Of a stretch of 33,492 bases of DNA, positions 3,355-24,254 are shown in pieces. The translations under genes and the position numbers were made by a program. The DNA lies in IMG/VR virus record IMGVR_UViG_2660238642_000001; one strand, 5' to 3'. Below the pieces are notes generated by a model that saw only the letters and a list, made by a program, of their open reading frames with translations, was not told where the DNA came from and made no database searches. The DNA comes from a virus (lineage: Duplodnaviria > Heunggongvirae > Uroviricota > Caudoviricetes). The stretch's first letter is position 1. Each line of letters starts with the position of its first letter.

Positions 3355-3626
3355 GTATTCGTATTGAAATTGGCGAACGTTATGTCGTTACCAGTGACAG
3401 CTTTCAGTTTATTCTCCACGAGAAAAAGAGAGCGGAAAGCGGTAAAAACGCCGGTCAGGAATGGTTGGCGGTGGTTGGTTATTACCCGAAATTAAGCCAG
3501 CTCGTTTCCGGCCTGATGCATCACGATATTCTGACCGGAAGCGCAAAGTCTTTTGCTGATTTAAACGCGCAGGTTGAGCAACTCAGCAAGCGTTGTTCAG
3601 AGGCTTTGGGCTCATATGGCCGTTAA
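3351..3626 (+). CDS. Hypothetical early protein (P2 orf83 position)
   Basis: 91-aa ORF coupled to its neighbours, overlapping the start of A. Confidence 0.5.
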   Translation: MSIRIEIGERYVVTSDSFQFILHEKKRAESGKNAGQEWLAVVGYYPKLSQLVSGLMHHDILTGSAKSFADLNAQVEQLSKRCSEALGSYGR

Positions 3627-5895
3627 AGCCTCCGGGCGTTTTGTCCCTCCGTCAGCATTTGCCGCAGGCACCGGTAAGACGTTTACCGGTGCTTATGCAT
3701 GGAACGCGCCACGCGAGGCTGTCGGGCGCGAAAGACCCCTTACACGTGACGAGATGCGTCAGGTGCAAGGTGTTTTATCCACGATTAACCGCCTGCCTTA
3801 TTTTTTGCGCTCGCTGTTTACTTCACGCTACGACTACATCCGGCGCACTAAAAGCCCGGTGCACGGGTTTTATTTCCTCACATCCACTTTTCAGCGTCGT
3901 TTATGGCCGCGCATTGAGCGCGTTAATCAGCGCCATGAAATGAACACCGACGCGTCGTTGCTGTTTCTGACAGAGCGTGACCATTATGCGCGTCTGCCGG
4001 GGATGAATGACAAGGAGCTGAAAAAGTTTGCCGCCCGTATTTCATCGCAGCTTTTCATGATGTATGAGGAACTCTGCGATGCATGGGTTGATGCACATGG
4101 CGAAAAAGAATCGCTGTTTACGGATGAGGCGCAGGCGCATCTGTATGGTCATGTTGCTGGCGCTGCACGTGCTTTCAATATTTCCCCGCTCTACTGGAAA
4201 AAATACCGTAAAGGACAGATGACCACGAGGCAGGCATATTCTGCCATTGCCCGTCTGTTTAATGATGAGTGGTGGACTCATCAGCTTAAAGGACAGCGTA
4301 TGCGCTGGCATGAAGCGTTACTGATAGCTGTCGGGGAGGTTAATAAAGACCGCTCACCTTATGCCAGTAAACACGCCATTCGTGATGTGCGTGCACGCCG
4401 CCAGGCAAATCTGGAATTTCTTAAATCGTGTGACCTTGAAAACAGGGAAACCGGCGAGCGCATCGACCTTATCAGTAAGGTGATGGGCAGTATTTCTAAT
4501 CCAGAAATTCGCCGGATGGAGCTGATGAACACCATCGCCGGTATTGAGCGTTACGCCGCCGCAGAGGGTGATGTGGGGATGTTTATCACGCTGACCGCAC
4601 CGTCAAAGTATCACCCGACACGTCAGGTCGGAAAAGGCGAAAGTAAAACCGTTCAGCTTAATCACGGCTGGAACGATGAGGCATTTAATCCAAAGGATGC
4701 GCAGCGTTATCTCTGCCGTATCTGGAGCCTGATGCGCACGGCATTCAAGGATAATGATTTACAGGCCTACGGTTTGCGTGTCGTCGAGCCACACCATGAC
4801 GGAACGCCACACTGGCATATGATGCTTTTTTGTAATCCACGCCAGCGTAACCAGATTATCGAAATCATGCGTCGCTATGCGCTCAAAGAGGATGGCGACG
4901 AAAGAGGTGCCGCGCGAAACCGTTTTCAGGCAAAACATCTTAATCGGGGCGGTGCTGCGGGGTATATCGCGAAATACATCTCAAAAAATATCGACGGCTA
5001 TGCACTGGATGGGCAGCTCGATAACGATACCGGCAGACCGCTGAAAGATACTGCCGCGGCTGTTACCGCATGGGCGTCAACGTGGCGCATTCCGCAATTT
5101 AAAACGGTTGGCCTGCCGACAATGGGGGCTTACCGTGAACTACGCAAATTGCCTCGCGGCGTCAGCATTGCTGATGAGTTTGACGAGCGCGTCGAGGCTG
5201 CACGCGCCGCCGCAGACAGTGGTGATTTTGCGTTGTATATCAGCGCGCAGGGTGGGGCAAATGTCCCGCGCGATTGTCAGACTGTCAGGGTCGCCCGTAG
5301 CCCGTCGGATGACGTTAACGAGTACGAGGAAGAAGTCGAGAGAGTGGTCGGCATTTACGCGCCGCATCTCGGCGCGCGTCATATTCATATCACCAGAACG
5401 ACGGACTGGCGCATTGTACCGAAAGTTCCGGTCGTTGAGCCTTTGACTTTAAAAAGCGGCATCGCCGCGCCTCGGAGTCCTGTCAATAACTGTGGAAAGC
5501 TCACCGGTGGTGATACTTCGTCACCGGCTCCCACGCCTTCTGAACACGCCTCAGCAGTGCTTAATCTGGTTGATGACGGTGTCATCGAATGGAGTGACCC
5601 GGAGGTCGTGAGGGCGCTCAGGGGGGCATTAAAACACGGACTGAGAAGACCAAACCGCCAGCAAAGAAACGGAAGCACGTTAAAACCACATGAAATTGCA
5701 CCATCGGCCAGACTGAGCCGGTCGGAACGATTGCAAATTACCCGTATCCGCGTTGACCTTGCTCAGAACGGTATCAGGCCGCAGCGATGGGAGCTTGAGG
5801 CGCTGGCGCGTGGGGCAACAGTAAATTATGACGGGAAAAAATTCATGTATCCGGTCGCTGACGAATGGCCGGGACTCTCAACATATTATCAATGA
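3616..5895 (+). CDS. A: Rolling-circle replication initiator (endonuclease) A
   Basis: ~760 aa from the ATG at 3616 (MAVKASGRF..., matching the P2 gpA N-terminus as recalled; the track ORF begins earlier at 3574). Contains the HUH motif EPHHDGTPHWHMMLF and paired catalytic tyrosines in GYIAKYISK. Confidence 0.9.
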   Translation: MAVKASGRFVPPSAFAAGTGKTFTGAYAWNAPREAVGRERPLTRDEMRQVQGVLSTINRLPYFLRSLFTSRYDYIRRTKSPVHGFYFLTSTFQRRLWPRIERVNQRHEMNTDASLLFLTERDHYARLPGMNDKELKKFAARISSQLFMMYEELCDAWVDAHGEKESLFTDEAQAHLYGHVAGAARAFNISPLYWKKYRKGQMTTRQAYSAIARLFNDEWWTHQLKGQRMRWHEALLIAVGEVNKDRSPYASKHAIRDVRARRQANLEFLKSCDLENRETGERIDLISKVMGSISNPEIRRMELMNTIAGIERYAAAEGDVGMFITLTAPSKYHPTRQVGKGESKTVQLNHGWNDEAFNPKDAQRYLCRIWSLMRTAFKDNDLQAYGLRVVEPHHDGTPHWHMMLFCNPRQRNQIIEIMRRYALKEDGDERGAARNRFQAKHLNRGGAAGYIAKYISKNIDGYALDGQLDNDTGRPLKDTAAAVTAWASTWRIPQFKTVGLPTMGAYRELRKLPRGVSIADEFDERVEAARAAADSGDFALYISAQGGANVPRDCQTVRVARSPSDDVNEYEEEVERVVGIYAPHLGARHIHITRTTDWRIVPKVPVVEPLTLKSGIAAPRSPVNNCGKLTGGDTSSPAPTPSEHASAVLNLVDDGVIEWSDPEVVRALRGALKHGLRRPNRQQRNGSTLKPHEIAPSARLSRSERLQITRIRVDLAQNGIRPQRWELEALARGATVNYDGKKFMYPVADEWPGLSTYYQ

Positions 5896-6308
5896 TGATT
5901 GACATGAATATACTACTGAGATTAATCAGATCATCGATTGATTCCAAGATTATAGTATGGAATGGGAACCGTAAACCGCTCTGAGAGTTGTATGCATATA
6001 TGCCTGAGGGCAAAGCTTAACGTGGTTATTTTGACCAACGTCAGCTACCTAAGAGTTATGGCTGGTCTTATGCTTCTGCATTCCCACAAGCATGTGATGT
6101 GTGGGAAAATGGAGCAGGGAAATCTAAGTTAAGTTGGATTCTAATGTAATTAAGATGCCTAAGTTTGCTTATCTTTCGCTGTGACGTGGAACTTTGTTAT
6201 GATACTGCATGCATAAACAGTTGTTTTCTGCTGTTTAAATTACCAGTGAGCACTTTTGCTTGCTAAGTATAGAATGTAGTCATTTTAAACATGTTGCAAG
6301 GTAGTATC

Positions 6309-7451
6309 ATGGCTGAAGAAGCAGGGCGCTTAACATTTTTTGATGTAACGAAAGCTGGTTTTTACAATCTTAAGGATGAAGTTCAAAAAAGCACGGATAT
6401 TGTAAATATATTAGACTCCCTGTCCAACTGGGTTTGTTCTCGTTCTTTTGAAGAAACCCTACCATTGGTTGATGACTCTAGACTGCGGAAAAAGGTTTAT
6501 TGTCGAGGTGTGCATAAAGATGAAAAGACAGGCGATTATTTTTTTGTGCTTTGGAAATCAGAACTTGATGGCAATGGTAATCTTCAGGGGGTTGCGCCAG
6601 ATTCACAGGTAAATTCATCATCTAGTGACGTTAAGATGCTTTCGGATGATATGACTGATGGGGTTAAATATATTTGGGGTAAGCCATGTTATTACTGGTA
6701 CATCCCTGAGTTCAATAAATTTGCTGCAATTCGTTTCCCTCACTCAAACTCAGACACTTATCTTTTTAGTCGCTATATTAGAGATTATGCTAATTTCAGA
6801 ATGCCATATCCCGGGCGTAAAATTGCAGAAGTATGCAGACCAAATCCAGGTGGGAAAGACATAAAGTTTAGTGTTGTTACATTTGAAAGTGATGACGGAA
6901 GTTCACGAGTAAGATTTTTATTTGAAGCGCAGCAGTATATGAAAAAAGCTGGGCGTATAAATATAAAGAAGATTCGTGACTCTATAACACATATTGTAAT
7001 AAGAGATACAATTGGAGCTAAAGTTCCAGATAAAAGAGCTTGGTGGGTAAAGGCTTTTGATAAATTTCCTGTATTACGTGATGAAGTACCTAAGACTCAT
7101 AAAGAACGACAGATAGAGTTAATTATTGAAGAAAGACCAACTGAAAAGCAAATTGACGAACTTTTCGATTTTTATGAAGAGGATTATGCTTTCGGCTCTT
7201 CTTGGAACAATATCGGCTTCAAACAGGATGGTAAGAATGGGCAGACTAAGTGGTTAGATGAATATGTTATGCGTGATTATTTGAATGCTACTTATACTGT
7301 AAATGATAACGCACATATCTCGGCTGAGAAATTGGCAGAGTTAATTAATGATAAACGAAAAGAACTCGTAAGTGGTCTCGATGGTTATGAGATTGATAAA
7401 ACTCAAGTTATACCTTCGGGAAATAACAATGAGGTCGCTATAGGAGGATGA
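6309..7451 (+). CDS. Hypothetical soluble protein, first gene of the island-1 two-gene operon (candidate defence protein)
   Basis: ~380-aa ORF in a clearly AT-rich island. The ATG at 6309 is preceded by AAGG; the track start is 6291. No Walker, RT, or nuclease motifs recognised. An Rx4H string (RDSITH) is present but not diagnostic. The stop is 1 nt from the start of the next gene. Confidence 0.6.
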   Translation: MAEEAGRLTFFDVTKAGFYNLKDEVQKSTDIVNILDSLSNWVCSRSFEETLPLVDDSRLRKKVYCRGVHKDEKTGDYFFVLWKSELDGNGNLQGVAPDSQVNSSSSDVKMLSDDMTDGVKYIWGKPCYYWYIPEFNKFAAIRFPHSNSDTYLFSRYIRDYANFRMPYPGRKIAEVCRPNPGGKDIKFSVVTFESDDGSSRVRFLFEAQQYMKKAGRINIKKIRDSITHIVIRDTIGAKVPDKRAWWVKAFDKFPVLRDEVPKTHKERQIELIIEERPTEKQIDELFDFYEEDYAFGSSWNNIGFKQDGKNGQTKWLDEYVMRDYLNATYTVNDNAHISAEKLAELINDKRKELVSGLDGYEIDKTQVIPSGNNNEVAIGG

Positions 7452-7452
7452 T

Positions 7453-7959
7453 GTGATAATAAAGATCCTTATTGGGATTCTCATGGCCTTCGTTCTGCTT
7501 GTTGGCGGTTTTAGCATTTCAGAAAGCGTCAAATATTCATATGTTGTTGATCTTCTTGGTGTTTTGCAAAATACGTCCGCGATGATTTTTGCAATTGCTG
7601 GTATTTGGCTAGCTTATCTCTATCCAAATGCAATCGCTGGTTTGATGAAATCTGAAAAAGTGGATTTTTTAGCAAGCAAAAGTGAAGCGAAGCGCATAGA
7701 AGGTATGATTCTTATTATCATTATGTCCGCTACTGTATTAATTTTTATTATTGCTTTTTACGCATTTAATGCTGTTCTCCGCGGTACGGATTTCTATGCG
7801 AACAATCGTCACCTTATTAAAGGTGTGAGTTGTGTATATATCTTGAGTATATTACTGACTCAACTGTCATGCGTTATTGTTCTTATTTGGAGAAATGTCT
7901 CGTTTATAAATAGGTTGTATACAGTAATAAACGAAAAAGAATTGGAGGAAAAGTTATAG
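7453..7959 (+). CDS. Small 4-TM integral membrane protein, translationally coupled partner
   Basis: GTG start 4 nt after AGGAGG (7443-7448) and 1 nt after the upstream stop. 168 aa with four hydrophobic stretches of ~20 residues (IIKILIGILMAFVLLVGGFSI, AMIFAIAGIWLAYLY, MILIIIMSATVLIFIIAFYAF, VSCVYILSILLTQLSCVIVLIW). Confidence 0.6.
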   Translation: MIIKILIGILMAFVLLVGGFSISESVKYSYVVDLLGVLQNTSAMIFAIAGIWLAYLYPNAIAGLMKSEKVDFLASKSEAKRIEGMILIIIMSATVLIFIIAFYAFNAVLRGTDFYANNRHLIKGVSCVYILSILLTQLSCVIVLIWRNVSFINRLYTVINEKELEEKL

Positions 7960-7991
7960 CGAACGGCATTTAATGCTGTTTTAATGATCTT

Positions 7992-8030
7992 AAGGGGTGT
8001 TTTTAATGCACCCCTTTCATGATTTTTTTT
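7992..8030 (+). terminator. Rho-independent terminator closing the island-1 two-gene operon
   Basis: Perfect 8-bp stem AAGGGGTG / CACCCCTT with a 9-nt loop, followed within 6 nt by a T8 run. Confidence 0.55.
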
Positions 8031-8076
8031 AGTGTTTGTTGTTTTTAATAAGAATTGTGAATTAACAGGAGAGGAT

Positions 8077-8808
8077 GTGATACACATAACAAAGCCAGGA
8101 ATTTTATTTAAGTATCGTAAGTTTGATAAAAACAATCTGAAGCTGTTATTGAATCGTGAGTTATGGTTTGCAAAACCAGATACTCTTAATGATCCTTTTG
8201 AAGCAAATTCTTCATTTTCAAATGTGCTTGATGCTGTTTGGAAACATTATCCACTGCCTCTTGATATGAGAATTAAATATGAGAGATATCTTAAACAGTC
8301 ATTGCAGCAAGTCGGAATTTGTTCCTTTAGTAAAGCGAGGAAAAATCAATTGATGTGGTCACATTATGCCGATGAACATAAAGGTATTTGCATTGGCTTT
8401 AAAGAGGAGTATTTGAAGAAAGCTGGGGTTTCTTTTTTGGAAGCAGATGTGGAATATCAGGATAATTATCCCTTTGATGATATTGTTAAACGTATTCATT
8501 ATTTTGAGGATAATGAATGCCTTAACGGGTTTGATAATATTTGCGGGGATATTTTACTTTCTATTTTAACGACAAAGTACACAAGTTGGAAATATGAAAG
8601 GGAGCGCCGATTGATTGTGGAGAATTTTGGAGCAAGGAAATTTGAACCTTTAGCGGTCAATTCTATAGCTTTTGGGTTAAGAATGAAGGAAAGAGATAAA
8701 AAAACGCTACTGACTCTATTGTCAGGCCCAGAGTGGTCGCATTTGAAATGGTTTCAATCAACGAAATCATCAATTAAATACTCTTTAGATTTCATACGTA
8801 TTAAATAG
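8077..8808 (+). CDS. DUF2971-like protein (unknown function)
   Basis: LWFAKPDTLNDPFE and MWSHYADEHKGICIGF match my recollection of the DUF2971 signature. The track ORF starts at GTG 8032, but a GTG at 8077 preceded by AGGAGAGG and lying downstream of the terminator is the more likely start. Confidence 0.55.
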   Translation: MIHITKPGILFKYRKFDKNNLKLLLNRELWFAKPDTLNDPFEANSSFSNVLDAVWKHYPLPLDMRIKYERYLKQSLQQVGICSFSKARKNQLMWSHYADEHKGICIGFKEEYLKKAGVSFLEADVEYQDNYPFDDIVKRIHYFEDNECLNGFDNICGDILLSILTTKYTSWKYERERRLIVENFGARKFEPLAVNSIAFGLRMKERDKKTLLTLLSGPEWSHLKWFQSTKSSIKYSLDFIRIK

Positions 8809-9211
8809 CTTTCAAATAGTTACGGTGGTTGTCATGTTATCGTCCCTCTTAACTGTCAGATCTGATTGAATACTGGATATGTAACCTATCAGTTGGTGTC
8901 TGAGTTAATACAACTGAAAGTATCAAACTGATGGCTTTTGTTCACAGTCGGCAGCAGATAATGAAGCACGAAAATCTGATGCTTGATGCGTTGGTTGGAG
9001 GGCAATTAGTCCGGGAGAATTACGGGTTGCTTAACGATATCAGTCCATCCAGAATGGCTCCGTCATCACACAGATGATAGAGAACGCCGCTAGCCGTGAA
9101 ACTTGTTTCTAGTGTTAGCGGGGGGGAACAATGAGTGCAGCGATGCGTTAGACTTATTTGTGTATTATGGCTTAATCTCGGATAGAGTTTGTTATCTGGA
9201 GAATAGGTTAT

Positions 9212-9631
9212 ATGGTGACGCTTGATACTGTGTATTGGAAGTTTGGTTATGCATCGGAAGCTGCCCAATTATTGGAGACTGAATTAATAAATGCCCTCAC
9301 TGAGTATGATATGAAGCAAGGGGGGGATATAGCGTCGTTGAAAAAACAGTTTCTAGAAATGGATAAGTACACGCTGGGTAAACTGAATTACGCACTGAAG
9401 TCAAGGATGGTGGGGGATGCTGATACACTGGAGCATGTGTCAGATGCTCTTAAAGCCAGAAACTACTTGGCACATGAGTTTTATCGCAAACATGCTGATG
9501 GTAAATTCACTCCAGAAGGAAGGCAGAGAATGCTTGCTGACTTAAAAAATATACATCAAATAATTTTTGAGGCTTACCGCAAGGTTCTGCAACTAAGTGA
9601 CATTGATATTCCTCCTTTAGAGCATGATTAA
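9212..9631 (+). CDS. Small alpha-helical HEPN-like protein (putative RNase or toxin)
   Basis: 139 aa, charged and helix-prone, with ARNYLAHEFY (R83-x4-H88-x2-Y91) resembling the HEPN Rx4-6H motif. Stand-alone gene at the distal end of the island. Confidence 0.45.
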   Translation: MVTLDTVYWKFGYASEAAQLLETELINALTEYDMKQGGDIASLKKQFLEMDKYTLGKLNYALKSRMVGDADTLEHVSDALKARNYLAHEFYRKHADGKFTPEGRQRMLADLKNIHQIIFEAYRKVLQLSDIDIPPLEHD

Positions 9632-9633
9632 AT

Positions 9634-9673
9634 CTTGCATGCATTAGATGCATTAGATGCATTAGTTTGCATG
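9634..9673. repeat. Tandem 9-bp repeat GCATTAGAT (about 2.8 copies) bracketed by TTGCATGC direct repeats
   Basis: Directly visible: ttGCATGCATTAGATGCATTAGATGCATTAGtttGCATGC immediately after the stop of the HEPN-like gene. Confidence 0.6.
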
Positions 9674-9768
9674 CCTCATTCGTTATTTTCATATTCGAGT
9701 GCCGTCAGTGTCGGCATGGTTTTGACGGATTCATACATCTGCATTAAAACCGCCCCATGAAGCGGGCG

Positions 9769-9787
9769 GGCGAGGCGGGGAAAGCAC
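9769..9787. other. cos site (19-nt cohesive-end sequence of P2)
   Basis: GGCGAGGCGGGGAAAGCAC matches the P2 cohesive end as I recall it. It lies between the accessory island and the portal gene Q, the position expected for a linearly integrated P2-type genome. Confidence 0.65.
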
Positions 9788-9956
9788 TGCGCGCTGGCGG
9801 TGGTGCTGATTTTATTTTTTCAGCGTCTGAGCGCGTCGTGATGGCGTTTAGATTGTGCGCCGGGGCGTTGGTGTGTCTGCGGGGTGTTTTGTGCGGTGGT
9901 GAGCGTGTGAGGGCGTGATGACGGGATGTAAAAAAGCCGCCCGCAGGCGGCGATGT

Positions 9957-10991
9957 TCAGCCGTTGTCAGTGTCCAGTGAGTAGTTTTTAAAGCGGATGA
10001 CCTCCTGACCGAGCCAGCCGTTTATCTCGCGGATCCTGTCCTGTAGCGGGATAAGCTCATTGCGGACAAAGACCTTAGCCACTTTCTCAATATCACCCAG
10101 CGACCCGACGTTCTCCGGCTTGCCGCCCATCAACTGAAAGGGGATGCGGTGCGCGTCCAGCAGGTCAGCGGCGCTGGCTTTTTTGATATTAAAAAAATCG
10201 TCCTTCGTCGCCACTTCACTGAGCGGGATAATTTTAATGCCGTCGGCTTTTCCCTGTGGGGCATAGAGAAACAGGTTTTTAAAGTTGTTGCGGCCTTTCG
10301 ACTTCACCATGTTTTCGCGAAGCATTTCGATATCGTTGCGATCCTGCACGGCATCGGTGACGTACATGATGTATCCGGCATGTGCGCCGTTTTCGTAATA
10401 CTTGCGGCGGAACAGCGTGGCCGACTCATTCAGCCAGGCAGAGTTAAGGCCGCTGAGATATTCCGGCAGGCCGTACAGCTCCTGATTAATATCCGGCTCC
10501 AGCAGATGAAACACGGAGCCGGGCGCGAAAGGTGCCGGCTCGTTGAAGGACGGCACCCACCAGTAAACATCCTCCTCCACGCCACGGCGGGTATATTTTG
10601 CCGGTGAGGTTTCCAGTCTGATGACCTTACCGGTAGTGCTGTAACGCTTTTCCAGAAACGCATTACCGAACACCAGAAAATCCAGCACAAAGCGGCTGAA
10701 ATCCTGCTGGGAAAGCCACGGGTGCGGGATAAACGTTGAAGCCAGAATATTACGTTTGACGTAAATCGGTGAGCTGTGATGCACGGCAGCACGCAGGCTT
10801 TTTGCCAGACCGGTAAAGCTGACCGGGGGTTCATACCATCTGCCGTTACTGATACATTCGACATAATCCAGAATGTCACGGCGGTCGAGTACCGGCACCG
10901 GATCACCAAAGGTGAATGCCTCCATTTTCGGGGCGCTGGCGGTCATTTTTTTTGCCGCAGGTTGCGGTGTTTTCCCTTTTTTCTTGCTCAT
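9957..10991 (-). CDS. Q: Portal (capsid vertex) protein
   Basis: 344 aa, the P2 gpQ length. First gene leftward of cos and followed by the large terminase gene, as in P2. Confidence 0.9.
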   Translation of the reverse strand: MSKKKGKTPQPAAKKMTASAPKMEAFTFGDPVPVLDRRDILDYVECISNGRWYEPPVSFTGLAKSLRAAVHHSSPIYVKRNILASTFIPHPWLSQQDFSRFVLDFLVFGNAFLEKRYSTTGKVIRLETSPAKYTRRGVEEDVYWWVPSFNEPAPFAPGSVFHLLEPDINQELYGLPEYLSGLNSAWLNESATLFRRKYYENGAHAGYIMYVTDAVQDRNDIEMLRENMVKSKGRNNFKNLFLYAPQGKADGIKIIPLSEVATKDDFFNIKKASAADLLDAHRIPFQLMGGKPENVGSLGDIEKVAKVFVRNELIPLQDRIREINGWLGQEVIRFKNYSLDTDNG

Positions 10992-12763
10992 CAGTAAAAC
11001 TCCAGAATGGTGGATGTCAGCGGAGTGCTGATACCGGCGGTGAGTGGCTCATTTAACAGAGCGTGCATGGTCGCCCAGGCGAGGTCGGCGTGGCTGGCTT
11101 CCTCGCTGCGGCTGGCCTCATAGGTGGCGCTGCGTCCGCTGCTGGTCATGGTCTTGCGGATAGCCATAAACGAGCTGGTGATGTCGGTGGCGCTGACGTC
11201 ATATTCCAGACAGCCACGGCGGATGACGTCTTTTGCCTTGAGCACCATTGCGGTTTTCATTTCCGGCGTGTAGCGGATGTCGCGCGCGGCGGGATAGAAC
11301 GAGCGCACGAGCTGGAACACGCCGACACCAAGGCCGGTGGCATCAATACCGATGTATTCGACGTTGTATTTTTCGGTGAGTTTGCGGATGGATTCAGCCT
11401 GGGTGGCAAAGTCCATGCCTTTCCACTGGTGACGCTCAAGTATCCTGAATTTGCCACCGGCCACCACCGGCGGTGCCAGCACCACGCATCCGGCGCTGTC
11501 GCCACGGTGTGACGGGTCGTAACCAATCCATACCGGGCGGGAGCCGAACGGATTTGCGGCAAACGGCGCGTAGTCTTCCCATTCTTCCAGAGTGTCGACC
11601 ATGCAGCGTTGCAGCTCCTCGAACGGGAACACCGACGCCTTGTCGTCAACAAATTCACACATGAACAGGTTTTTAAAATCGTCGGCGCTGTTTTCGCGTT
11701 TGAGCTGCTCAATGTCGAACAGCGTGCAGCCGCCTTTCAGCGCGTCCTCAATGGTGACAATCTGCCGCCACTGGCCGTCCGCACAGAGAAGACCTCCGGC
11801 AAGGGCGTTATGACTGACGTCGATTTCCACGCGTTCGGCGGCGCTGGCGCGTCCCCGGTTGAACAGTTCACCCGACCAGAACGGGTAGGCGTCGTGCGCC
11901 AGCGTGGACGGGGTGGAGAAATAGGTCGAGCGCAGGTGGCTCTGTGAGGCCATACCTGATGCCACCTTACGCAGTACCTGAAAATTCGGGATCCAGAAAA
12001 TCTCGTCGACGTACAGGTCGCCGTTATGGCTCTGCGCGGTGTTGGAGTTGGTGCCGAGAAAAATCAGTTTTGCGCCGTTATTGCCCAGGACAATCGGGTC
12101 ACCGGTCAGGTCAACGTCAACCAGACGGGCAAAGGCGATGATGTATTCGCGGAACACATACGCCTGCGTTTTACTGGCCGACAGAAAAATCTGGTTATGA
12201 CCGGTTTTCAGGGCGCGCAGCAGCGCCTCGCGGGAAAAATAAAACGTTGCGCCAATCTGGCGGGATTTCAGGATATCGCGGATGCGGTGCTCAAGCCCGG
12301 CGCGATACCAGTGCAACTGATAGTCGAAAGACTGCTCAAAGAAAATCTGCTCCAGCTTTTCGATGGCCTCGTCACTGAAAAAATTCTTTTTCGGTTTGCG
12401 CCGCCCGCCTTTGTTGCGGTTAGCGACGTTCGGATTAAGGTCTGCCTCGTTGCCGGTCTGACTGTAACGGTTGACCCGTGCCAGTCGTTCAATCTGACGT
12501 CCCAGCAGGTCAATTTCCTTGAAGTCACCGCCGGTTTTCTGCGGTTTGATGATGAGCTGGGTCAGCCGCGCTTCCAGACTCATTTCGACACGGCTGATGG
12601 GGGCAACGCTGTCCCAGCCGTCGCGCTGTTTCCAGCTCTGCACCGTCGGGCGTTTCATCTGCAACATGGCGGCAATCTGCGGCACGGAAAACCCCTGCCA
12701 GTACAGCAGCGCCGCCTGACGACGCGGGTCGTGTAAAAGAGTGGTGTCTGTGGTGATGGTCAT
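10991..12763 (-). CDS. P: Terminase large subunit (ATPase)
   Basis: 590 aa from the ATG at 12763, which is preceded by GAGGT; the track extends to a TTG at 12793. Same length as P2 gpP and coupled to Q. Confidence 0.9.
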   Translation of the reverse strand: MTITTDTTLLHDPRRQAALLYWQGFSVPQIAAMLQMKRPTVQSWKQRDGWDSVAPISRVEMSLEARLTQLIIKPQKTGGDFKEIDLLGRQIERLARVNRYSQTGNEADLNPNVANRNKGGRRKPKKNFFSDEAIEKLEQIFFEQSFDYQLHWYRAGLEHRIRDILKSRQIGATFYFSREALLRALKTGHNQIFLSASKTQAYVFREYIIAFARLVDVDLTGDPIVLGNNGAKLIFLGTNSNTAQSHNGDLYVDEIFWIPNFQVLRKVASGMASQSHLRSTYFSTPSTLAHDAYPFWSGELFNRGRASAAERVEIDVSHNALAGGLLCADGQWRQIVTIEDALKGGCTLFDIEQLKRENSADDFKNLFMCEFVDDKASVFPFEELQRCMVDTLEEWEDYAPFAANPFGSRPVWIGYDPSHRGDSAGCVVLAPPVVAGGKFRILERHQWKGMDFATQAESIRKLTEKYNVEYIGIDATGLGVGVFQLVRSFYPAARDIRYTPEMKTAMVLKAKDVIRRGCLEYDVSATDITSSFMAIRKTMTSSGRSATYEASRSEEASHADLAWATMHALLNEPLTAGISTPLTSTILEFY

Positions 12764-12793
12764 GAATACCTCGCCGTGATGAATACACGGCAA

Positions 12794-14926: not shown

Positions 14927-15670
14927 ATGACGAGTCCCGCACAGCGCCACATGATGCGGGTCTCGGCAGCGATGACCGCGCAGCGGGAAGCCGCCCCGCT
15001 GCGACATGCAACTGTCTATGAGCAGATGCTGGTCAAGCTGGCCGCAGACCAGCGCACACTGAAAGCGATTTATTCAAAAGAGCTGAAGGCCGCGAAAAAG
15101 CGCGAACTGCTGCCGTTCTGGTTGCCGTGGGTGAACGGCGTGCTGGAGCAGGGCAAAGGTGCACAGGATGACATTCTGATGACGGTCATGCTGTGGCGTC
15201 TGGATACCGGCGATATTGCCGGTGCGCTGGAGATTGCCCGTTATGCCCTGAAGTACGGTCTGACCATGCCGGGTAAACACCGCCGCACCCCGCCGTACAT
15301 GTTCACCGAGGAGGTGGCACTTGCGGCCATGCGCGCTCACGCTGCCGGTGAGTCTGTGGACACCCGCCTGCTGACGGACACCCTCGAACTGACCGCCACG
15401 GCTGACATGCCTGATGAAGTGCGCGCAAAGCTGCACAAAATCACCGGTCTGTTTCTGCGTGACGCTGGTGATGCCGGAGGTGCGCTGGCGCACCTGCAAC
15501 GTGCGACACAGCTCGACTGTCAGGCAGGCGTCAAAAAAGAGATTGAACGACTGGAGCGGGAGCTGAAACCGAAGCCGGAGCCGCAGCCAAAAGCGGTCAC
15601 CCGCGCCCCGCGTAAGACCCGGAGCGTGACCCCGGCAAAACGTGGACGCCCGAAAAAGAAAGCCAGTTAA
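14927..15670 (+). CDS. M: Terminase small subunit / endonuclease
   Basis: 247 aa, the P2 gpM length, with a basic Lys/Arg/Pro-rich C-terminus. Confidence 0.85.
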   Translation: MTSPAQRHMMRVSAAMTAQREAAPLRHATVYEQMLVKLAADQRTLKAIYSKELKAAKKRELLPFWLPWVNGVLEQGKGAQDDILMTVMLWRLDTGDIAGALEIARYALKYGLTMPGKHRRTPPYMFTEEVALAAMRAHAAGESVDTRLLTDTLELTATADMPDEVRAKLHKITGLFLRDAGDAGGALAHLQRATQLDCQAGVKKEIERLERELKPKPEPQPKAVTRAPRKTRSVTPAKRGRPKKKAS

Positions 15671-21629: not shown

Positions 21630-24254
21630 ATGAGCACGAAATTTAAAACCGTTATCACTACTGCCGGAGCCGCAAAGCTGGCAGCCGCCACTGTCCCCGG
21701 CGGGAAAAAAGTAAACCTGTCTGCAATGGCCGTGGGTGACGGTAATGGCAAATTGCCGGTGCCGGATGCCGGTCAGACGAAACTGGTGCATGAGGTCTGG
21801 CGTCACGCTCTGAATAAAGTCAGCGTGGATAACAAGAATAAAAACTATATCGTGGCTGAACTGGTTGTACCGCCAGAAGTGGGCGGCTTCTGGATGCGTG
21901 AACTTGGTCTGTATGATGATGCCGGAACACTGATTGCGGTCGCTAACATGGCAGAAAGCTATAAGCCTGAACTGGCTGAAGGCTCCGGGCGTGCGCAGAC
22001 CTGCCGCATGGTCATTATTGTCAGTAACGTGGCGTCTGTTGAGCTGAGTATTGATGCCAGCACAGTGATGGCGACGCAGGATTACGTCGATGACAAAATC
22101 GCAGAGCATGAGCAGTCCCGCCGCCATCCTGACGCCACGCTGACAGAAAAAGGTTTTACTCAGTTAAGCAGTGCAACAAACAGCACCAGTGAAAAGCTGG
22201 CAGCAACGCCAAAGGCAGTAAAAGCAGCCTATGACAATGCTGAGAAACGTCTGCAGAAAGACCAGAACGGTGGCGATATTCCAGATAAGGGCGCTTTTCT
22301 GGACAATATTGGCGTTACCAGCCTGACGTTTATGAAACACAATGGAATGATTCCAACCACTGACAATCTTGATTCCTATGGCCCAGAAGAAAAATATCTT
22401 GGAACGTGGTCATGTCCGTCACAATCCACTGCAAAACCAGAGTCTGGTTACCCTGAAGATAAAGGCAATGGGGTTCTGGAAGTATTCAATGCTGGTCGCT
22501 TTCACTGCACACAACGCTACACCACCCGAACCGGTAATATTTACATTCGGATGCTTGATGCAGAATGGAACCCTGTCAGTCCTGTATGGAGTGCATGGAG
22601 AGCTATTACAAGCGGGACTCGCCCATTAAGCACGTCAATTGACCTGAATTCTTTAGGTGGTGCGGAACACCTGGGAATATGGCGCAATAGCAGTACATCA
22701 ATAGCCTCATTTGACCGTCATTTCCCGGAGGAAGGGAGTTTTGGACAGGGTATTCTGGAAGTCTTTGAAGGCGGTCTGTATGGGAGGATGCAACGTTATA
22801 CCACCCGTAGTGGGACTATGTACATTCGCGGACTGACAGCCTCATGGGATGCAGAAAATCCACAATGGGAGGACTGGATTGCTGTTGGGTATCAGTCCAC
22901 GGGATGGACTTATTCAGGGGATCTTGATGACCTTTTAAAGCCTGGTATTTATAGCGTCACGAAACAGGCCACAAATGCACCTGTCACCGACTCTAAAGAT
23001 CTTGCTGTTGGCTCAATAGTTGAGGTGAAAAAACGTTGTGATATTGAATCGTATATCCAGACATATACGACTGTTTCAGCAACGGATGCCTATAAAAACC
23101 GGACATTTCAGCGAACCCGCGCCAGCGGTGAAACTGACTGGGGGGAATGGGCGGAAGTATACAACTCAAAATCATTACTCACTAAATTAGGTGTCGGCGG
23201 TGTTACCGACAGGTTATCCAGTCTGGACTGGCAGACCTACGACTTTATACCGGGCAGCATGATAACTGTCAGGCTTTCAGATATGACCAATATTCCCGAT
23301 GGGATGGAATGGGGCGTCATTGATACTAACCTGATAAATATCACTGTTGGCCCCAGTGAAGGCGGAGGTGTCGCCCGTTCAATGCAGGTATGGCGCAGCA
23401 CTTCAAACAAAACCAACTATCGTTTTTTTACAGTCCGCTTATATGGCAATCCTGGGGAGCGTAGCTTCAATATTCGTCGGCTACCAATTATCGACGAAGC
23501 CCAGACATGGGAGGCAAAACAGACATTCAGTGCAGGCCTTTCTGGTGAACTGTCCGGCAATGCGGCTACAGCAACAAAGCTGAAAACGGCAAGGACAATT
23601 AACGGCGTAAAATTTGACGGCTCGGCAAATATTGAAGCGTTTCCGCCTGGTGTTCCGCTGCCGTGGCCATCAGATACACCACCTGCAGGCTATGCAATCA
23701 TGCAGGGGCAGACGTTTGATAAGGCAGCATATCCGAAACTGGCTATAGCCTATCCTTCTGGTGTTATTCCTGATATGCGCGGCTGGACAATCAAGGGCAA
23801 ACCCGCCAGTGGGCGTGCCGTATTGTCACAGGAACAGGACGGGATTAAATCGCATACTCACAGTGCCAGTGCGTCAAATACGGATTTGGGAACGAAAACA
23901 ACCAGTTCGTTTGATTACGGGACGAAGACAGTCAGTACGTTTAACTACGGAACAAAAACCACTAATACCACTGGTAACCATACACATACCATTTACAGAG
24001 GGAATGCCAATACTAATGGTGAAACCGGTAAAACAGGCTTTGACAACCCATCGTTTAATGGCACATCAGGAGCTGCCGGGAATCATGCCCACACGGTAGA
24101 TATTGGTGCACATAATCATACGGTTGGTATTGGTGCACATTCACACACGGTTGCTATTGGCTCACACGGGCACTCTATTACCGTTAATGCTACAGGTAAT
24201 ACAGAAAACACCGTCAAAAACATCGCATTTAACTATATTGTGAGGCTTGCATAA
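21630..24254 (+). CDS. H: Tail fibre protein (P2 H-like N-terminus, divergent repeat-containing distal part)
   Basis: 874 aa. The N-terminal ~190 aa resemble P2 gpH as recalled. The middle carries three ~45-aa internal repeats (QRYTTR[TS]G..YIR...W..W). The C-terminus is Gly/Thr/His-rich with HxH repeats ([32 protein letters not shown]). Confidence 0.85.

Follow-up and report, generated by a model that had tools for sequence, protein, structure and literature searches.

A perfect tandem repeat lies at the junction between the cargo genes and the packaging region of a P2-like prophage, and its position raises the question of whether it is a property of the cargo, a trace of cargo exchange, or a part of the phage backbone. 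The window analysed here, by which we mean the whole stretch of 33,492 nucleotides of IMG/VR record IMGVR_UViG_2660238642_000001, is a complete P2-like prophage with the integrase at 1-996 and replication gene A (a long ORF listed as 3574-5895) upstream of the cargo. The cargo includes the PADLOC candidate defence families PDC-M18A (6291-7451), PDC-M18B (7453-7959), and PDC-S31/DUF2971 (8032-8808) and ends with a gene for a 139-aa protein (9212-9631, + strand; coordinates from the ORF list), which lies outside the repeat and serves here as context only. That protein is assigned to phrog_12893, has been labelled 'HEPN-like' because of its RNYLAH (Rx4H) motif, and matched no Pfam or PADLOC family. 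The cargo occupies the tin/old hotspot of Rousset et al. (PMC9122126), whose account of this region agrees with the layout of the window.

To the right of the cargo (6291-9631) follow cos, the Q terminator, and Q, an order that places this cos between the tin/old hotspot and Q, the location of cos in the P2 family. The intrinsic terminator of the Q-P operon (9936-9951, - strand) was found by a terminator scan, and P2 and 186 have a terminator annotated in the corresponding position. Beyond it are the portal gene Q (9957-10991, - strand; Pfam Phage_portal, RefSeq annotation), the gene for the terminase large subunit gpP (10991-12793, - strand; Pfam Terminase_5, HTH_23, Terminase_6N, and Terminase_6C, with an N-terminal helix-turn-helix at residues 22-79), and that for the terminase small subunit gpM (14927-15670, + strand; Pfam Phage_term_smal, E = 3.5e-48), for which a search by sequence found no solved structure.

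The repeat itself consists of three perfect tandem copies of ATGCATTAG at 9639-9665 (Tandem Repeats Finder: period 9, 3.0 copies, 100% matches, score 54). An independent repeat search returned the same three ATGCATTAG copies and located TTGCATGC on both sides of them, at 9635-9642 and 9667-9674, in agreement with the 8-bp direct repeat that had been described as a bracket. Written out, 9631-9680 reads taa-atc-TTGCATGC-ATTAG-ATGCATTAG-ATGCATTAG-TTTGCATGC-ctcatt, and the feature begins 3 nt past the stop codon (9629-9631) of the 139-aa ORF at 9212-9631. The original prediction, which gave about 2.8 copies of a 9-bp unit at 9634-9673, had a real repeat at the right locus; the copy number is 3.0, the unit GCATTAGAT is ATGCATTAG in another register, and the right end of the feature is 9674. 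Its remark that the array is too short for a CRISPR array holds, as the 9-nt units are contiguous and have no spacers, whereas CRISPR arrays have repeats of 23-50 nt and unique spacers.

The tandem and its bracket are confirmed as real and stand far above chance expectation. At 27 nt, the tandem is the longest perfect one in the window; in 100 first-order Markov simulations, no perfect tandem was longer than 21 nt. Five TGCAT words fall within 40 nt, where the simulated sequences had 3 at most. The ATGCATTAG 9-mer has no further occurrence in the window outside the tandem. Elsewhere, the sole other adjacent TGCAT words (CTGCATGCATAA) lie at 6206-6214, in the intergenic space upstream of the first cargo gene, and may be due to chance; in the late-gene region, two imperfect tandem arrays (23892-23959 and 24090-24160; periods 30 and 27, 2.3-2.6 copies, 76-81% matches) were also noted.

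Counted from the first base of the cohesive-end overhang, the TGCAT words of the repeat begin at -133, -129, -120, -111, and -101. This overhang, the 19-nt sequence GGCGAGGCGGGGAAAGCAC at the cut site (9769-9787), matches exactly the P2 cosL/cosR annotated in AF063097, and many phage records begin precisely at its first base. It lies within a 55-bp cos core (9740-9794), which corresponds to the block of P2/P4 identity from -29 to about +26, opens with a proximal box, TGCATTAAAACC, at -29, aligns with P4, P2, 186, and PSP3, and is near-invariant over the 64 cos flanks described below. By these matches, the window has a bona fide P2-type cos. The '55-bp core' of the P2/P4 cos derives from Ziermann & Calendar 1990, as cited in PMC5694545, PMC3931495, and PMC9594776; in our numbering, it corresponds to -29 to +26 and hence starts exactly at a TGCAT box. 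The tandem repeat is located 72-104 bp outside this core. A 53-aa ORF (9757-9918, + strand) crosses the cos cut site and has equivalents annotated as hypothetical (L002 4614-4775; KC618326 8779-8940); the call is probably spurious.

Whether the TGCAT words belong to the cargo or to cos can be judged from other members of the family. An alignment of the junction that included prophages with unrelated cargo, P2 with its leftward old gene, and a cdt-carrying relative of P2 has an invariant GCAT-N6-TGCAT at the same place. For a broader sample, 120 IMG/VR loci were retrieved by a 26-nt cos core alone, which does not overlap the boxes, and were reduced to 64 non-redundant cos flanks (under 80% identity). 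The proximal TGCAT at -29 is present in 59 of the 64 flanks, and the distal words at -101 ± 1 and -111 ± 1 in 53/64 and 44/64, respectively; a further TGCAT around -121 to -124 occurs in at least 22/64. The consensus of these flanks is TGCATgaaTTTGCATGcgt. Information content is near zero upstream of about -125, is low or near zero again from about -92 to -66, and then climbs to the core. Because a variable spacer separates them from the core in this profile, the distal boxes are islands of conservation and not the decaying edge of homology around cos. The spacer is fixed in length (±1 bp) but variable in sequence, and that of P2 is unrelated to the others.

The same layout recurs in individual phages. 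Boxes lie at -111, -101, and -29 in P2, 186, PSP3, the satellite P4, and Ralstonia RSY1, accompanied by an outer box at -123 in P2, -124 in 186, P4, and RSY1, and -120 in PSP3; a Klebsiella Vimunumvirus has boxes at -124, -120, -111, -101, and -29, and Ralstonia RSA1 has them at -129, -110, -100, and -29. Klebsiella RCIP0057, Enterobacter ENT4, and Erwinia ENT90 share this arrangement. P4 is packaged by the P2 terminase, and cos is the only sequence common to P4 and P2 (PMC9122126). On the Q side, the similarity of P4 to P2-like phages ends ~8 bp beyond the overhang, whereas on the other side of cos it continues to about -125 and includes the boxes at -124, -111, -101, and -29.

On the evidence of these alignments, the boxes are phage backbone and part of the packaging signal, and not a cargo feature. 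The repeat had been predicted to lie between the last cargo gene and the cos region; its position is as described, but it is itself a part of the conserved cos region. The -111 and -101 boxes stand at the same distance from cos beside unrelated cargo, which in essence refutes the proposed association with cargo. A recombination scar marking the cargo boundary is likewise hard to reconcile with boxes at a fixed distance from cos in prophages with unrelated cargo and in P2, 186, PSP3, and P4. Of the suggested iteron-like protein-binding site, the notion of a protein-binding repeat survives in another sense, namely as cos boxes, and that of a cargo-associated iteron does not. The only part of the repeat that is lineage-specific is its extra unit.

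About 20% of lineages are without one or both distal boxes (e.g. L155, L232, L236, and L250), so their role may be to improve packaging without being indispensable to it. HP1 has CACGGAAAAT repeats of its own near its ends, but its cos is too divergent for positions to be compared. Within the spacer, a semi-conserved element (9704-9719, or -65 to -50; consensus g.CAG..CTGG.G.GG) was recognized from the information-content profile and the alignments. It is absent from P2 itself and could be a second protein site within cos, for which we regard it as a candidate. In several lineages, this element is partly palindromic (e.g. CCGCGCC-N6-GGCGCGG in P4).

The neighbouring 139-aa gene was considered in the same comparisons. 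Its homologues adjoin cos in PSP3 (gp38, 76% identity) and in UPEC85 (81%), and their upstream partners differ: M18/S31 genes in the window, an HNH endonuclease gene in UPEC85, and gp37 in PSP3. The Rx4H gene was always found directly beside the cos boxes (window 9212-9631; L130 190-609; L001 4078-4497) and may be a semi-autonomous module. The relative in E. coli W13-16 (L002 1319-5233) is a degraded prophage, its HNH cargo gene interrupted by an IS3 element and its portal gene truncated, yet the box array and cos are kept.

The individual parts of the repeat can be matched to the family layout. The right TTGCATGC (9667-9674) is the canonical -101 box, with TGCAT at 9668-9672 and a family consensus of TTTGCATGcg. 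The TGCAT at 9658-9662 is the canonical -111 box found in P2, P4, 186, PSP3, and RSY1, and that at 9649-9653 is a -120 box, which PSP3 has at the same position and which corresponds to a third box at -120 to -124 across the family. The left TTGCATGC (9635-9642) contains overlapping TGCAT words at 9636 (-133) and 9640 (-129), that is, TGCATGCAT; it is the distal palindromic element of the family, TGCATGCA, shifted 9 bp outward from its usual place at -124. The canonical form, ATGCATGCA, is found at about -124 in many lineages.

Two sister loci explain the shift. A metagenome contig (L264) and an IMG/VR contig (L267) have the same cargo, cos, Q, and P and are 98.7% identical to the window over 7 kb; the single indel is a 9-nt gap that leaves two ATGCATTAG units in place of three. 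This two-unit form has the canonical -124/-120/-111/-101 layout with the spacing seen throughout the family, and its ATGCATGCA is at -124. In the window, where the tandem at 9639-9665 has the unit missing from both sisters, the boxes at -101, -111, and -120 remain canonical, and the duplicated unit moves the outermost TGCATGCA from -124 to -133. The distance from the stop codon of the 139-aa gene to the -101 box tells the same story: it is 27 nt in PSP3 and in UPEC85-type prophages and 36 nt in the window, a difference of exactly one 9-bp unit. Among 98 unique flanks, the stretch from -145 to -93 mostly contains two or three exact TGCAT words; four occur only in L012, in which one 10-bp box unit is duplicated relative to its sister L030, and five only in the window.

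Judged against these sister alleles, the tandem repeat is a recent slippage duplication inside the box array, and such events have taken place at least two independent times. The check that had been recommended, copy-number variation among strains, thus has a positive outcome in same-cargo sister prophages with two units instead of three. The variation was seen only in the metagenome and IMG/VR contigs: none was found among 18 complete E. coli records with the allele, all of which have three units. Over an 861-bp stretch of the region, 17 complete E. coli genomes show 100% identity to the window and one further genome shows 99.9%. Replication slippage between neighbouring boxes would have produced the extra unit. 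Since the outermost element alone is displaced and the two best-conserved boxes stay in place, the unit is probably neutral or mildly modulating; a modest change in terminase affinity is possible.

What, then, are the boxes for? We consider it probable, if well short of certain, that the repeat is the distal terminase-recognition box array of an extended cos shared by the P2 family, enlarged by one 9-bp slippage unit. The boxes would be read by the phage terminase, with gpM and/or the N-terminal helix-turn-helix of gpP as candidate readers. An oligomer would assemble on one face of the DNA at the distal boxes, which are 10 bp apart and lie 72 and 82 bp from the core box. Simultaneous binding at the distal and core boxes, about 7-8 helical turns apart, would then wrap or bend the spacer so that the nuclease is positioned over the 19-nt cut site, in a working mode like that of the R sites of lambda cosB. 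An experimental hint at such a function comes from P2/P4 cosmids, among which those with longer cos flanks had ~2000-fold better transduction (0.035 versus 1.7e-5) in a comparison that is confounded (PMC9594776).

The identity of the boxes, and not only their position, connects the distal array to the core. One genome per species was scanned with a degenerate cos core, which yielded 118 usable loci, including roughly 15-20 chance matches in non-phage DNA. Selecting among the loci by a match to the portal gene was uninformative, as many of them are satellites or truncated. A GCAT core box is present at 88 loci, 70 of which also have GCAT both at -100 ± 2 and at -110 ± 2; the control figure is 2 of 176 position pairs. 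With another word in the core, the distal boxes tend to change as well. A GCAG core is matched by both distal GCAG boxes at 3/3 Stenotrophomonas loci and in phiCTX and Smp131; the latter two have no TGCAT; their core box at -29 is TGCAG, and (T/C)GCAG stands at about -110 and -100. Both distal boxes likewise match a GCGT core in one Sphingomonas locus (L211), a GCAC core in another (L202), and a CCGTCG core in a Comamonas locus (L178). Exceptions are L204 and L215, which have a GCAC core without matching distal boxes, the Aeromonas loci described next, and some lineages in which distal boxes are missing altogether.

Two observations were made alongside these scans. In Aeromonas (L151 and L177), the stretch from about -135 to -95 contains 3-4 AAGGATC repeats, each with a Dam GATC site, and the core box is still GCAT. 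Additionally, the gpP helix-turn-helix has the form TV(Q/H)SWKxRD in GCAT-type phages from Enterobacterales to Chromobacterium and TVHEWKQAD in the CCGTCG-type L178, a difference that is a hint as to which subunit may read the boxes and that comes from a single example.

The same covariation bears on the question of who reads the boxes. They might be bound by a host nucleoid or DNA-bending protein in a role like that of IHF at lambda cosB, or by another phage protein that aids cos cleavage, with the terminase not being the reader. Fixed positions, fixed spacing, and presence in P4 would fit any cos-associated binding protein, and the box type does track the host clade in part, as with GCAG in Xanthomonadales and Pseudomonas. 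Such a protein would have to account, however, for the same motif opening the 55-bp core by the cut and covarying with the distal boxes. The distribution of words is also hard to square with one conserved host factor: GCAT is common to hosts as diverse as Enterobacterales, Ralstonia, Chromobacterium, and Pandoraea, sphingomonads use three words (GCAT, GCGT, and GCAC), and betaproteobacterial hosts have both GCAT and CCGTCG. The occurrence of several box types within sphingomonads and within betaproteobacterial hosts speaks for a reader encoded by the phage and against a host factor. A site made of TGCAT direct repeats is not known to us for any E. coli protein. Taken together, we regard a reader other than the terminase as fairly unlikely.

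The boxes could also be without function, a patch of shared homology bordering the hotspot of cargo exchange that acts as a recombination anchor or persists as a scar, with the tandem as slippage noise. Recombination near cos has been proposed by Rousset et al. as a driver of cargo exchange (PMC9122126), the variable hotspot starts immediately upstream of the boxes, and the extra unit is a typical product of slippage, all of which would suit such an account. Passive homology would not be expected to form islands of conservation around a variable spacer of fixed length, without a gradient from cos, and the coordinates of the boxes are unchanged in P4, whose hotspot is on the other side of cos, as well as in Ralstonia phages. 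Four concerted switches of motif, moreover, indicate selection on box identity. An absence of function is therefore distinctly unlikely.

A role in transcription was suggested by P2 itself. If the boxes were a conserved promoter or operator module for the cargo beside cos, the tandem repeat would alter cargo expression. The P2 old-tin mRNA starts at 33424/33426 on the minus strand, and the predicted -35 hexamer (TTGAAT) would overlap the -123 box, with the -111 and -101 boxes just upstream of it. This overlap with the P2 old promoter does not generalize to other lineages, and we rejected the promoter as a general explanation. In the window, PSP3, and UPEC85, the neighbouring gene converges on cos; in P4, the boxes are downstream of psu and there is no leftward gene. 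No promoter-like site was found in 9630-9700, and both the fixed distance to the cut and the covariation with the core box would be left unexplained. A conserved promoter module is quite improbable on these grounds.

The original prediction had further raised the possibility of a type III-toxin-like RNA repeat, and one may ask more generally whether the repeat acts within the transcript of the HEPN-like gene, either as an intrinsic terminator or as a ToxI-like antitoxin RNA. It does start 3 nt past the stop codon, and its GCATGC/ATGCAT palindromes are able to form a hairpin. The fold, however, has z = -1.5 and is equalled in 14 of 200 shuffles, and folding of the repeat as DNA likewise gave nothing significant. 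A scan of 9631-9790 found no + strand terminator, the hairpin being followed by CCUCAUUCG and not by a U-tract. A search of Rfam gave no match; the unit, at 9 nt as opposed to about 36 nt in ToxI, lies downstream rather than upstream of the gene; and the boxes are kept beside unrelated genes in either orientation. An RNA-level element, including the type III-toxin-like repeat, is accordingly very improbable. The last candidate, a replication iteron array, is very unlikely despite the short direct repeats and their roughly helical spacing. Replication of P2 starts from an origin within gene A, and that of P4 depends on alpha-protein iterons of its own at ori and crr, yet both have boxes by cos, and the distance of the boxes to the cos cut is fixed.

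Returning to terminase recognition, a broader and tentative proposal, which we would sooner doubt than adopt, is that the distal and core boxes are the two halves of a recognition code of Peduoviridae terminases. The terminase and the word (GCAT, GCAG, GCGT, GCAC, or CCGTCG) would evolve together, satellites of the P4 type would need a copy of the code in order to be packaged, the functional cos would measure ~150 bp rather than 55, and changes in copy number would tune the competition for terminase with co-resident helpers or satellites. The P2-type cos is of an already known kind, and repeats around cos have been noticed before, in the phiCTX annotation. We found no description of distal boxes, of a recognition code, or of gpM binding in the accessible P2/P4 cos literature, in which the 1990 primary paper is represented by its citations. 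What may be new, judged against this literature, is the family-level array of distal boxes, whose word varies together with that of the core box and which carries cos out to about -125.

Some consequences are practical. For annotation, the repeat belongs to cos and is neither a cargo feature nor an RNA element, and the P2 defence hotspot ends on its right at the outermost box, some 125-135 bp away from the cut. Should the boxes be terminase sites, the pattern of fixed positions and concerted word switches would offer a direct handle on what P2-family terminases recognize and on what a P4-like satellite must mimic. Designs of P2/P4 cosmids and transducing particles that are built on a '55-bp cos' may omit sequence relevant to packaging efficiency.

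Among known systems, the more superficial likenesses are to repeats of other kinds. ToxI of type III toxin-antitoxin systems is also a tandem repeat beside a small putative nuclease gene, but its repeats are about 34-36 nt long and lie upstream of a toxin of the ToxN/AbiQ family, whereas those described here are 9 nt long and lie downstream of a gene whose product has no family match. Plasmid and phage replication iterons resemble the boxes in being short direct repeats, tandem or phased, to which a protein binds (here putatively); the boxes differ in being away from the origin, tied to the cos cut, and common to P2 and P4 with their unrelated replication systems.

The likeness to lambda cosB, which consists of the gpNu1-binding sites R3, R2, and R1 and the IHF site I1, would be one of working mode only: about 50-150 bp from the nicking site there are several short repeats, which belong to a cos signal read (here putatively) by terminase and whose spacing implies bending of the DNA. 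The sequences are unrelated, the small terminase is of a different family (Phage_term_smal), and the boxes are direct repeats of 5-9 bp. No IHF site was identified. The boxes also sit on the opposite (right-end) side of the genome map, and an equivalence to lambda cosB, which lies inside the end that is packaged first, would be conjectural. Closer to the window is phiCTX, for which 'R4, R5, R6 repeats' are annotated in GenBank NC_003278 (region 3, spanning cos); its TGCAG at -110, CGCAG at -100, and TGCAG at -29 form the same architecture and differ in the word, GCAG instead of GCAT. Closest is the cos of P2 and P4 with its 55-bp core. The window has the same locus and the same 19-nt overhang, and the first bases of the core are the TGCAT box at -29; relative to this core, the present comparison would extend the putative functional cos to about -125, on the right-end side only.
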